Program-made: the position numbers and the translations under genes
Shown: positions 21,071 to 62,940 of the stretch, one piece after another
How the letters are laid out: the number at the start of each line of letters is the position of its first letter
Position numbering within the stretch: position 1 is the stretch's first letter
Notes under the pieces: model-generated
What the model saw: only the letters and a program-made list of their open reading frames with translations
Databases searched by the model: none
What the model was told of the DNA's origin: nothing
Source of the DNA: Bordetella parapertussis
GTDB lineage: Bacteria > Pseudomonadota > Gammaproteobacteria > Burkholderiales > SG8-41
Direction of reading: 5' to 3'
Assembly: GCA_945864585.1 (NCBI GenBank)
Contig: CAMBCF010000008.1
Location: forward strand, 5,689-69,688
DNA length: 64,000 nt

Positions 21071-21514
21071 TTGGAGCAGTTTTTCGCAACGTTTTTCATC
21101 TACCTGCAAAAAAGTCCGCTTAATATGGTGTTGTTCGGTTTGGCGGTTACTTCCGCCGGCATGCTGTTGTTTCCGATGCTTACGCGGGGCATGCGTCCAG
21201 GCGCCGAGGTGGGGCCGACGGAAGCGGTAACGCTGATTAACCGTAAAGACGCGACGGTGATTGACGTTCGCGACGAAGGCGAATTCGCCGGCGGCCACAT
21301 CAACAACGCGCGCCACATACCCGAAAAGCAGCTCGCCGGGCGCATCAAAGAGCTGGAGAAATTTAAAACCAAACTCTTGATTGTCAGTTGCGCCAGCGGG
21401 CGGCGGGCGGCGGCCGTTAGTGACAGCTTGCGCAAACAGGGCTTTACCGACGTGGTGGCTTTACGCGGGGGCATCGGCGCGTGGGTGCAAGCCGGCATGC
21501 CGCTTGAAAAATAA
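21071..21514 (+). CDS. Rhodanese-like membrane-anchored protein (YibN-like)
   Basis: N-terminal TM, IDVRD.GEFAGGHI, LRGGIGAW; TTG start after AGGAG. Confidence 0.88.
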   Translation: MEQFFATFFIYLQKSPLNMVLFGLAVTSAGMLLFPMLTRGMRPGAEVGPTEAVTLINRKDATVIDVRDEGEFAGGHINNARHIPEKQLAGRIKELEKFKTKLLIVSCASGRRAAAVSDSLRKQGFTDVVALRGGIGAWVQAGMPLEK

Positions 21515-21550
21515 TTTCTAAACGAATATCTACTTACCATCAGGGATGTC

Positions 21551-21808
21551 ATGGCTAAAGTTTTGATGTACAGCACGGCAGTTTGACCGTACTGCGTATC
21601 CGCGGAGCGGCTACTGGCAAACAAAGGCGTTGCACAAGTCGAAAAGGTGTATATCGATCGTGATCCCGCGCGCCGCGCCGAAATGATGGAAAAAACCGGA
21701 CGGCGCACGGTGCCGCAAATCTACATCGGCGACACCCATGTGGGCGGCTATGACGACCTGTCCGCGCTGGATCGCGCCGGCGGGCTTGACGCGCTGCTGG
21801 CGACATAA
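21551..21808 (+). CDS. grxC: Glutaredoxin 3 with in-frame TGA at the catalytic position (candidate selenoprotein, UPYC)
   Basis: MAKVLMYSTAV*PYCVSAERLLANKG...TGRRTVPQIYIGDTHVGGYDDL; TGA at 21584-21586; rhodanese-grxC-secB-gpsA synteny. Confidence 0.9.
21593..21619 (+). promoter_or_regulatory. Putative bacterial SECIS element
   Basis: TGC-GTA-T-CCGC[GGA]GCGG-C-TAC-(TG)-GCA; apical loop begins with G, 17 nt after the UGA. Confidence 0.6.
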
Positions 21809-21848: not shown

Positions 21849-22343
21849 ATGAGCGAACAAGCGCAGCAACCGCCGTCTCCACCGGACACCACGCAGCCGA
21901 TTTTCAGCATCGAAAAGATCTATCTGAAGGACATGTCGCTGGAAGCGCCCGGCACGCCCAAGATTTTTTTGCTCAACGAAACACCGCAGGTCGAGGTGAA
22001 CATACACACCGCTGCCACTGTGGTTGAAGCCGGCGCACTCTACGAAGTCGTGCTCACTGCGACCATTACGGCGAAGCTGCCCGAACGCACGGTGTTTCTG
22101 GTTGAGGTGGCGCAGGCGGGTTTGTTTCATATCCGCAATCTGCCGCCGCAGGATCTGGATGCCGTGCTCGGCATACTGTGCCCCACCACGCTTTTGCCGT
22201 ATGCACGCGAAGCGGTGTCGAGCACCATCGCGCGCGCGGGGTTCCCGCCGGTGATTCTGCATCACATGGATTTCAACCAGGTCTACGCGCAAGCCGCGCA
22301 ACAGCAGGCGGGCCAGCAGCCCGCGCCGTCGCAGGTGAATTGA
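21849..22343 (+). CDS. secB: Protein-export chaperone SecB
   Basis: FSIEKIYLKDMSLEAP, EVAQAGLF, CPTTLLPYARE, GFPP. Confidence 0.95.
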   Translation: MSEQAQQPPSPPDTTQPIFSIEKIYLKDMSLEAPGTPKIFLLNETPQVEVNIHTAATVVEAGALYEVVLTATITAKLPERTVFLVEVAQAGLFHIRNLPPQDLDAVLGILCPTTLLPYAREAVSSTIARAGFPPVILHHMDFNQVYAQAAQQQAGQQPAPSQVN

Positions 22344-22344
22344 C

Positions 22345-22797
22345 ATGTTGCGCCGCGCCGCGTTCGCTTTGTTGCTGGTGCTGGGGGCGTCAGCCGCGCT
22401 CGTTGCAAGGGCTGCGGAATTTCGTGCGGCCGCCGAGGACGCTGTGGTGCTTTTCGATGCGCCCTCGGCGCAATCGCAAAAACGCTTTATCGTCAGCCAG
22501 GGTTATCCGCTGGAAGTGATCGTGGTGCTGCAGGGCTGGATCAAGGTGCGTGACGCCAGCGGCGCGCTGAGCTGGGTCGAAGCGGGTAAAGTGTCGAACA
22601 AGCAGCGCACCGTGATGGTGAAAGCGCCGCTCGCGCAAATCCGCCAGGCGGCGGATGACAATGCGCCGGTGGTGTTTCAGGCGCAGCAACACGTGGTGAT
22701 GGAACTCAGCGAAGTCGTCGCCGGCGGCTGGCTGCGCGTGCGTCATCGCGACGGCGCTGCCGGCTTCGTGCGCGTCGGGCAGGTGTGGGGCGTCTGA
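22345..22797 (+). CDS. Exported tandem SH3-domain protein
   Basis: Signal peptide, WIKVRDASG..SWV and WLRVRHRDG..GFV repeats, QVWG end. Confidence 0.85.
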   Translation: MLRRAAFALLLVLGASAALVARAAEFRAAAEDAVVLFDAPSAQSQKRFIVSQGYPLEVIVVLQGWIKVRDASGALSWVEAGKVSNKQRTVMVKAPLAQIRQAADDNAPVVFQAQQHVVMELSEVVAGGWLRVRHRDGAAGFVRVGQVWGV

Positions 22798-22807
22798 CCG
22801 CAAGCGG

Positions 22808-23788
22808 ATGAACATCGCCGTACTCGGTGCGGGTGCGTGGGGCACCGCGATATCGGTGCATCTTGCCGCCCGCCACCGCGTGACGCTGTGGGCGCGGGAC
22901 CCGGCACAGGCAGCGGCGATGCAGGCCGATCGCCAAAACCGCCGTTACCTTCAAGGCGTTACGCTACCGGCTGGTGTCGCGCTTACCGCCGATGCGGGCG
23001 TCGCCTTGCGCGATGCGTCGCTGGTGCTGGTTGCAGTGACCAGCGGCGGATTGCGTGAAACCCTGCAGCGTATCAAGTCCGCGCACTGTACTGCGCCGCT
23101 GTTATGGCTGTGCAAGGGCTTCGAGCGCGAGCATGCGCTGTTGCCGCATCAGGTGTGCGCGAGCACTTTGCCGCAGGCGGTGTGCGGCGTGTTGTCCGGC
23201 CCCAGCTTCGCCGAAGAAGTCGCGCGCGGGCAGCCGACGGCGCTGACCCTGGCTTCTACGGATGAGGCGTTTGCCAGCGCCACCGCGCGCGAGCTGCACG
23301 GCGGATCGCTGCGCGTGTATTCGAGCAGCGATGTGGTCGGCGTTGAAGTCGCGGGTGCGGTAAAAAACGTGATGGCCATCGCCACCGGCATCTGCGACGG
23401 ACTGCGTCTGGGCCTGAACGCGCGCGCGGCGTTGATGACCCGCGGCCTGGCGGAAATTGCGCGGCTCGGGGTCGCACTCGGCGGACGCGCTGAAACGTTC
23501 ATGGGACTTGCCGGCGTGGGCGATTTGATACTCACCTGCACCGGCGATCTGTCGCGCAACCGGCGCGTGGGTCTGCGCCTCGCCGCAGGCACACCGCTGG
23601 CGCAGATACTCGGCGACTTAGGCCATGTCGCTGAAGGCGTCTACAGCGCGCGCGAAGTCGCGCGCATTGCCAAAGCGCACGCAATCGAAGTGCCGATCAC
23701 CGATGCCGTATGCCGCGTGCTGGATGCGCCACAATCCGCAGCGCAGGTCGCCCGGGGGCTGCTGGAGCGCGACCCAAAATCCGAGTGA
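22808..23788 (+). CDS. gpsA: NAD(P)H-dependent glycerol-3-phosphate dehydrogenase
   Basis: GAGAWGTA, LSGPSFA, KNVMAIA, GDLILTCTGDLSRNR. Confidence 0.96.
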   Translation: MNIAVLGAGAWGTAISVHLAARHRVTLWARDPAQAAAMQADRQNRRYLQGVTLPAGVALTADAGVALRDASLVLVAVTSGGLRETLQRIKSAHCTAPLLWLCKGFEREHALLPHQVCASTLPQAVCGVLSGPSFAEEVARGQPTALTLASTDEAFASATARELHGGSLRVYSSSDVVGVEVAGAVKNVMAIATGICDGLRLGLNARAALMTRGLAEIARLGVALGGRAETFMGLAGVGDLILTCTGDLSRNRRVGLRLAAGTPLAQILGDLGHVAEGVYSAREVARIAKAHAIEVPITDAVCRVLDAPQSAAQVARGLLERDPKSE

Positions 23789-61656: not shown

Positions 61657-61796
61657 AAGTTCCCCAAATGGTTGTGCGCGCCCGCCGCGCGCTAAAGCGC
61701 ATCGGAAAACACCATGGGGAATTGACGATAGACAAAAGAGTGCCGCGATCACATGGATCAGGCACACCGCATCCCCGCGGCATTTCCATCCTTCGA

Positions 61797-62032
61797 CAGG
61801 GGCCGGTATACGGGCTCATGAACTAAACGTGCCGCCTTCCCATGAGTTTTATTTCGCGCACTCACAGTGGCTTGCTGGCACATCGTCGCAGCGTAGCGTG
61901 CGCGCTGCGTTCACTTACCGTTGCGGGGGCAGCATCGGCTTTGAGATTGTAAGTATTTGTTTTTAAATACTTTTCTCGCACCGGTTTCCCGTTTAACCGC
62001 CTCTCTTTGGGGATCGGCGGCACCCTCTACCG
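61797..62032 (-). ncRNA. Cobalamin riboswitch
   Basis: Minus strand GGTGCC..., AAACGGGAAACCGGTG, CTGCCCCCGCAACGGTAA, GCCACTG, GGGAAGGC, B12-box GAGCCCGTATACCGGCC. Confidence 0.93.
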
Positions 62033-62193
62033 TGTACGCGCAACGTTCGCTGACGGTAAGCGTGTTGCACGGACGGCCCAATGTTAGCACGCACTTTGGC
62101 TAACAAGCAGCGCCGCACACAACTGCCAAATCACATTCACTTTTCACGCTTAGTAGTTGACTTGATGGATTTTTTACAACTATAGTGCGCGCT

Positions 62194-62753: not shown

Positions 62754-62931
62754 AATTCCCCTGCGGTGTTCGTTAAGGCCTTAATTTCTTTGAGCCAATA
62801 AGTGGTATACGGTTGCTGACCCTAGTGATACCGGTGTGAGCGTCCCACGCGGACGAACCTGAAGGAATCCGGAAGGCGACCCCTTGAACCTTTGGTTCAA
62901 GAAACGGGCCTGACGGCACAGGCGGGGGAAC
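62754..62931 (+). ncRNA. ssrS: 6S RNA
   Basis: TTCCCCTGCGGTGTTCG... 5' arm pairs with ...CGGCACAGGCGGGGGAA; CTTGAACC...GGTTCAAG internal motif; directly after zapA. Confidence 0.9.
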
Positions 62932-62940
62932 CTTATGTAG

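Follow-up and report, generated by a model that had tools for sequence, protein, structure and literature searches.

Gene content of the locus

The window, by which we mean the whole stretch of 64,000 nucleotides that was analysed, carries a short glutaredoxin gene, grx, in the order gpmI (minus strand), rhodanese-domain gene, grx, secB, SH3-domain gene and gpsA (Table 1). The preliminary description had placed the gene in a grxC-secB-gpsA operon; the order of the three genes stands, but secB and gpsA are not neighbours, since the SH3-domain gene lies between them. The rhodanese-domain gene is syntenic with grx in all loci of sufficient length that carry the TGA-containing (Sec) form described below, and also in lineages with a cysteine (Cys) form. 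It gives a weak match to the NCBIfam model NF041203, "rhodanese-related (seleno)protein" (47.6 bits, below the cut-off of 115), and no in-frame TGA was seen in it. At the gathering thresholds of Rfam only a 6S RNA and a cobalamin riboswitch were found in the window, and none of its families matched at grx.

Table 1. Features of the grx locus and structured RNAs of the window (window coordinates).
Feature	Position	Strand	Evidence or remark
Rhodanese-domain protein, upstream neighbour	21071..21514	+	Pfam Rhodanese, 67.4 bits; start codon uncertain
Shine-Dalgarno-like AGGGA, 4 nt ahead of the ATG	21542..21546	+	Sequence inspection; putative
grxC(U), glutaredoxin 3 read through one UGA (predicted Sec12)	21551..21808	+	Sequence, translation, profile matches, dN/dS
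UGA codon 12, proposed selenocysteine	21584..21586	+	Kept in 20 of 21 species of the genus, G048 and G049; Cys in Cys-form orthologues
Hairpin with optional 3-bp lower extension (UGC/GCA over a UG bulge)	21593..21619	+	21593-21595 pairs with 21617-21619
Proposed SECIS core, GUA-U-CCGC[GGA]GCGG-C-UAC	21596..21614	+	Apical loop 21604-21606; invariance, folding
secB, downstream neighbour	21849..22343	+	NCBIfam NF004394, 189.5 bits (cut-off 181)
SH3-domain protein, between secB and gpsA	22345..22797	+	Pfam SH3_4, 74.3 bits
gpsA	22808..23788	+	NCBIfam NF000940, 466.9 bits
Cobalamin riboswitch	61784..62042	-	Rfam, 72.2 bits
6S RNA	62755..62932	+	Rfam, 92.4 bits

Direct inspection of the sequence and its translation gives an 85-codon grx frame from ATG to TAA with a lone in-frame TGA, which reads MAKVLMYSTAV-U-PYCVSAERLLANKGVAQVEKVYIDRDPARRAEMMEKTGRRTVPQIYIGDTHVGGYDDLSALDRAGGLDALLAT. 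The TGA is codon 12 and replaces the first (attacking) Cys of CPYC, so that the motif becomes U-P-Y-C. The frame, its length and the placing of the TGA agree to the base with what the preliminary description had reported, and so does its remark that the open reading frame track misses the gene: under table 11 the full grx is uncalled, and the only entry in its frame is a 53-amino-acid fragment from a GTG (21647-21808). The ATG is preceded by the ribosome-binding-like motif of Table 1, and a GGGA, GGAA or GGAG motif is found in the equivalent position in most relatives.

With C replacing U, the translated protein scores 111.5 bits against the NCBIfam equivalog TIGR02181 (GRX_bact, "glutaredoxin 3"; cut-off 90) and 70.9 bits against Pfam Glutaredoxin (PF00462), with U at the first position of UxxC; a second glutaredoxin 3 model, NF007923, gave 96.7 bits, below its cut-off of 129. 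Residues 3-83 align with PDB 1fov_A, labelled glutaredoxin 3 (E 1.4e-22), which together with 3grx_A we take to be the E. coli protein. The alignment sets UPYC over CPYC, with residue 12 at the first Cys, so 1fov_A has a Cys where the window gene has the UGA. Also conserved are the stretches TVPQI and GGYDDL, with the TVPQ and GG-DD motifs that presumably have a role in glutathione binding.

Conservation of the TGA and selection on the frame

Orthologues of grx were sought in genomes with a search that read through stop codons and counted them. In what follows G-numbers are species genomes, G000 being the genome of the window, and L-numbers are loci. Exactly one TGA was found in the orthologue of 19 of the 20 other species of the genus, the exception being G014, and none in any of the 19 matching genomes of other genera in the first sample. 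Checked base by base, the 20 Sec forms of the genus (G000 included) all have TGA at codon 12 in 20 distinct nucleotide sequences, and their proteins are 85-94% identical. It had been foreseen that close relatives might all carry Cys at this codon and have no conserved hairpin; they instead retain the TGA (19/20), along with the hairpin described below.

A survey of the family matched 144 of 159 genomes and found the TGA in 22 of them. Of these, 20 belong to the genus, and the other two are G048 and G049, each the sole species of its own genus and each with TGA confirmed at codon 12 (G049 is represented by a single genome that is 76% complete). The 122 family genomes without the TGA include the unpublished G050 and G166. 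In 16 of 16 Cys-form orthologues checked base by base, codon 12 is a Cys codon (TGC or TGT). At the level of the order 380 of 401 genomes matched, and among the 150 of 391 matches listed the TGA was seen only in G000, G003 and G011.

Environmental sequences gave the same letter. Contigs from four of four metagenome runs, from four studies and labelled as lake water and freshwater sediment, cover codon 12 and have TGA with no alternative letter, where a TGC or TGT had been named as the sign of an error. One of these runs (X3) is near-identical to the window and may be related to its source, and the contig of one run comes from a diverged relative that retains the TGA amid 11 other differences in 248 bases. 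The pattern M-Y-x-T-x-V-U-P-Y-C picked out 18 metagenome contigs, all of which read through to a glutaredoxin with TGA at codon 12 (one, L135, ends at a contig edge); as they were chosen by the TGA itself, they show its diversity and not its frequency. Scanning the metagenome contigs with the G049-type pattern U-P-Y-C-Q-M-A-E-R gave 0 matches.

Purifying selection acts strongly on both flanks of the TGA. For the 20 sequences of the genus the mean pairwise dN/dS is 0.026 over codons 1-11 and 0.079 over codons 25-84, at 0.53 and 0.43 synonymous differences per site (pS), respectively, and therefore both flanks are translated in the grx frame.

Selenocysteine machinery and other candidate selenoproteins

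The genome of the window is 100% complete by marker genes, in 234 contigs, and each of the selenocysteine genes that the preliminary description had pointed to as a check turned up in it. On contig 7 are selA, a 691-codon frame with a SelB winged-helix domain right after it, and, 1.2 kb further on, a tRNA-SeC with anticodon TCA. The selD gene (C41:18416-19339) has an in-frame TGA of its own in the motif GGG-U-GCK, and fdhA, for the alpha subunit of formate dehydrogenase (C96:4320-7382), has one in ARI-U-HAPT. Every one of the 21 genus genomes has selA, and so do G048 and G049; it is thus found in 22 of the 22 genomes with a TGA-containing grx. TGA has not been reassigned in G000, where it serves as a normal stop codon: of 1408 long open frames, 588 end in TGA, 456 in TAA and 364 in TAG.

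Directly upstream of selA lies a 257-codon gene for a fusion of a glutaredoxin-like and a DinB-type domain (C7:33680-34453, plus strand; locus L001:296-1066), with matches to Pfam Glutaredoxin (41.7 bits) and DinB_2 (22.8 bits, just below the cut-off of 24.8). An in-frame TGA at C7:33725 stands in "QPG-U-SSC" and is followed on its 3′ side by the hairpin CGAAAGA[GUU]UCUUUCG, with the loop at +27 to +29 when the U of the UGA is +1. We regard this fusion as a candidate fourth selenoprotein of the genome. Its loop and the candidate SECIS loops of fdhA (GUC at +23) and selD (GUU at +24) resemble that of grx in being 3 nt long and beginning with G in all four cases, while the grx loop is GGA, unlike the GU(N) of the other three. 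Apart from grx itself, a protein search and a Pfam survey turned up in this genome a single match to the grx protein, a Grx4-like gene (26% identity); classical dithiol glutaredoxins other than grx seem to be missing from the genus.

A candidate SECIS hairpin downstream of the UGA

A hairpin downstream of the UGA had been drawn from the sequence by eye, and we recovered it base for base. Numbered from the U of the UGA as +1, it is G13-U14-A15 / U16 / C17-C18-G19-C20 [G21 G22 A23] G24-C25-G26-G27 / C28 / U29-A30-C31, with the loop starting 17 nt past the UGA. The optional 3-bp extension at its foot adds about -1.8 kcal/mol, for a total of -9.2, and is broken in G007; it is less certain than the core. 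The GTA and CTA codons in its lower stem had been thought uncommon for this DNA, and the counts bear this out: at a genomic GC content of 59.6%, Val is encoded by GTA in 10% of cases and Leu by CTA in 2.1%.

The region of the hairpin is the deepest trough of synonymous variation in the gene. Across the 20 species all columns from +13 to +31 are invariant save +16 and +28, and codons 16-20 (V, S/T, A, E, R), all of them degenerate, use one codon apiece. Over codons 13-24 pS is 0.124, and the lowest seven of 77 eight-codon sliding windows start at codons 11-17. When folding is restricted to +13 to +40, the GGA hairpin is the minimum free energy (MFE) structure in every one of 21 sequences (G048 and 20 from the genus), with energies of -7.8 to -14.6 kcal/mol, and in G012 and G048 it is the overall MFE structure. 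At the homologous place it is absent from 15 of 16 Cys forms, where the energy is -2.1 or weaker and mostly positive.

The two variable columns face each other in the stem. Among 19 distinct genus rows the 16/28 pair is U.C in 13, A.C in one and A-U in five; in G048 it is G-C, and the pairs 14-30 and 15-29 are wobble pairs. These changes from mismatch to pair may reflect only one or two events. Within the genus there are no compensatory two-sided changes for this hairpin or for the competing one discussed below, and covariation therefore cannot discriminate between them. Shuffled sequences fold as stably as the 57 nt that follow the UGA (MFE, z = -0.03), and folding energy was for that reason dropped as an argument for a hairpin.

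Rules for bacterial SECIS elements are given in a figure legend of PMC13188914 as a loop of 3-9 nt, an upper stem of 4-16 bp, a G within the first two loop positions, a distance of 16-37 nt from the UGA and an energy of -7.5 kcal/mol or lower. The GGA hairpin has a loop of 3 nt with a G[G|U] start, an upper stem of 4 bp and a spacing of 17 nt, all within these ranges, and its energy in G000 (-7.4 kcal/mol for the core, -9.2 with the extension) is borderline against the threshold. In our own enumeration 41 of 44 Sec rows conform to the rules (these rows include four loci duplicating genus genomes and some metagenome contigs near-identical to these), but so do 44 of 92 rows of Cys-form orthologues. 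Because so many Cys forms pass as well, the presence of a SECIS-like hairpin is weak evidence, and it is the conservation of the region at the nucleotide level that is the real evidence. The hairpin had been cited in favour of selenocysteine (Sec) from the start, and the presence of the structure carries less weight than it was then given. Given Sec decoding, the GGA hairpin is most likely the element used, and would be the one bound by SelB.

The main competitor is that Sec decoding is real but that the SECIS is a hairpin starting at +4, CCGU.CUGCG[UAUC]CGCGG.GCGG, or another structure. For the whole sequence the +4 hairpin is the MFE structure in most of the genus, G000 included (-12.4 kcal/mol in G000, vs. 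-7.4 to -9.2 for the GGA hairpin), and is 98% paired over the genus. However, with the UGA in the A site of the ribosome, the mRNA channel encloses bases +4 to about +12, and on this footprint the 5′ arm of the +4 hairpin would sit within the ribosome. Its loop (UAUC or UAAC, +14 to +17) lacks a G, and at 10 nt from the UGA it is too close for the published range of 16-37 nt (PMC13188914); pair 6-25 of this hairpin is broken in three species. In G012, G001, G013 and G048 it falls to -4.4 to -6.5 kcal/mol, and the GGA hairpin is strengthened in those same genomes. We consider it unlikely, though not negligibly so, that the +4 hairpin or some further structure serves in place of the GGA hairpin.

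Decoding of the UGA

It is also conceivable that the UGA is passed without selenium, by a near-cognate Trp or Cys tRNA or by termination and re-initiation, to give a protein with no Sec. The borderline energy of the GGA hairpin would fit such a reading, but the UGA substitutes precisely the redox-active Cys, which is the typical position of Sec in the UxxC family, selA is there in each of the 22 carriers, and the 30 nt after the UGA are constrained at the nucleotide level. TGA is moreover a frequent ordinary stop in G000, and a Trp in the catalytic site would inactivate the enzyme, yet purifying selection on the remainder of the protein is strong. Read-through of this kind therefore seems very improbable. 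A pseudogene created by a nonsense mutation, or an assembly or sequencing error, might have been suspected from a full gene that gene callers leave uncalled and from public proteins that reach at most 86% identity (the best 120 of 7965, with six of six fetched being Cys forms), but is refuted by a TGA shared by 22 species genomes and 18 metagenome contigs, by four runs with no alternative letter and by a dN/dS of 0.079 downstream of the TGA.

The preferred reading is that the gene very probably encodes a functional selenocysteine glutaredoxin 3 with a UPYC active site, in which Sec is predicted to replace the nucleophilic N-terminal Cys. The proposal in the preliminary description that this organism recodes its housekeeping grxC as a selenoprotein is thus supported, through the conservation of the TGA, the selection on the frame and the sel machinery, as far as genome sequences can speak to it; the incorporation of selenium at codon 12 and its catalytic consequence are what we infer from them. 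In this model a ribosome would reach the UGA, and SelB carrying Sec-tRNA(Sec) would bind the hairpin that starts about 10 nt downstream, GUA-U-CCGC[GGA]GCGG-C-UAC with its loop G at +21. SelB would then supply Sec and prevent termination by release factor 2, and the product would be a thiol-disulfide oxidoreductase of the ordinary glutathione-dependent kind, its attacking group being a selenolate.

A second hairpin design and a probable Cys/Sec switch

Among the 18 metagenome contigs 14 have the GGA-loop hairpin. In the other four (L133, L136, L141 and L142) a 7-bp stem is capped by an AGUU loop (+26 to +29; -13.7 to -18.8 kcal/mol), and the residues following the active site are "RAEQLLRAKG". 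On contigs of sufficient length they keep the order rhodanese-grx-secB-SH3-gpsA, and they come from another lineage, since their SecB is only 51-57% identical to that of the window. The orthologue of G049 (L116) has a hairpin in the same register, with a GGUU loop and an energy of -12.1. The AGUU/GGUU-loop hairpin, with a stem of 7-8 bp and its loop at +26 to +29, is thus a candidate second SECIS design for the same grxC Sec codon. The Cys forms L117, L029, L030 and L122 have a weaker version of it, interrupted by a mismatch. In L117 and L122, examined base by base, the mismatch falls at the third position of a Leu codon, where the Sec forms have CUC or CUU and not the preferred CUG.

G014 (L026, G014:C13), the only Cys form of the genus, retains seven of the eight GGA-type pairs across codons 12-22, with a UGA loop and an energy of -5.5 kcal/mol, and it still has selA. 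It looks like a reversion from Sec to Cys that has kept a remnant of its SECIS; remnants of this kind have been described in Sec-to-Cys revertants (PMC1794560).

The protein tree was built from 38 rows (30 loci and 8 further regions) with codon 12 removed, leaving 82 columns. It groups the genus with G048 and G014 (support 93/85) and places G049 among the Cys forms, but only one of its 34 branches is starred, and a long-branch outgroup, G032, falls inside the genus. With 82 columns and one starred branch, the tree neither shows nor excludes a single origin of the Sec form. In all likelihood the Sec form was derived from a Cys ancestor within this betaproteobacterial family and became fixed in the genus, where 20 of 21 species have the TGA and G014 with its Cys form is the one exception.

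A broader scenario can be put forward tentatively, and we would rate it at somewhat below an even chance. The coding sequence of the helix after the active site (A-E-R/Q-L-L-R) may act as a "pre-SECIS", such that the same Cys codon turned to Sec at least twice in related Betaproteobacteria and in two registers, with at least one reversion (G014). The two registers are a GGA loop at +21 (the genus and G048) and a GGUU or AGUU loop at +26 (G049 and the four metagenome contigs of a distant lineage).

Comparison with known selenoproteins

Selenocysteine glutaredoxins are an already known family, to which the window gene belongs: Grx (PF00462, UxxC) is listed as an experimentally verified selenoprotein in PMC13188914, which cites Kim et al. 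2011 for a Clostridium enzyme. Members are reported from Geobacter sulfurreducens, Alkaliphilus metalliredigenes and Moorella thermoacetica (PMC1794560) and from 10 Sargasso Sea sequences (PMC1088965), and the replacement of Cys by Sec is described as a general trend in thiol oxidoreductases (PMC1794560). The earlier statement that Sec-glutaredoxins come mainly from environmental sequences needs adjusting, as they are also known from these three genomes and from the characterised Clostridium enzyme (PMC1794560, PMC13188914).

As the published accounts describe them, those proteins and the window gene are alike in their glutaredoxin fold, in Sec as the first residue of UxxC and in a UGA followed by a small-loop hairpin with an apical G. 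On the same comparison, which is by description only, the window gene is unlike them in being an orthologue of the housekeeping grxC (TIGR02181), in its rhodanese-grx-secB-SH3-gpsA locus and in its occurrence in uncultured Betaproteobacteria. The Uxx-star proteins (NF041212, NF041114 and NF047338) also share a small glutaredoxin fold with U first in the active site. Membership of the window gene in these families was considered and rejected, with scores of 31, 23.3 and 27.6 bits against cut-offs of 66, 72 and 97, respectively.

No account of a Sec-GrxC from Betaproteobacteria came up in our search of the open-access literature. The word "glutaredoxin" is absent from the main text of the BSepDB paper (PMC13326102), and the website or supplements of that resource may list the gene. 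A Sec-glutaredoxin in this lineage and at this housekeeping locus seems to have been unannotated so far.

Implications for annotation and for the lineage

Of 7965 proteins scored in the public protein collection, the best 120 full-length matches are at most 86% identical to the grx protein. The Sec forms of the genus, translated from DNA, are 85-94% identical, so they are evidently not called full-length there. Throughout this genus of uncultured Betaproteobacteria from freshwater and soil, automated annotation drops the active-site half of a housekeeping redox gene. The finding leaves the known mechanism of Sec insertion unchanged.

What the finding adds concerns the organisms. The genus appears to have made its sole classical dithiol glutaredoxin dependent on selenium. 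The 2006 survey (PMC1794560) gives FdhA as the only selenoprotein in the Sec-decoding Alpha- and Betaproteobacteria then known; the predicted selenoproteome here has at least four members, namely Sec-Grx, Sec-SelD, Sec-FdhA and the Sec Grx-DinB fusion. The host is an uncultured betaproteobacterium. What merits the attention of specialists is the pair of candidate SECIS designs, along with the remnant hairpin. Together with the Cys revertant, the two candidate designs would make a small but clean example of how a Cys/Sec switch evolves, and, if the pre-SECIS scenario is true, grxC would offer a natural series of the birth of a SECIS, its tuning by synonymous changes and its loss.
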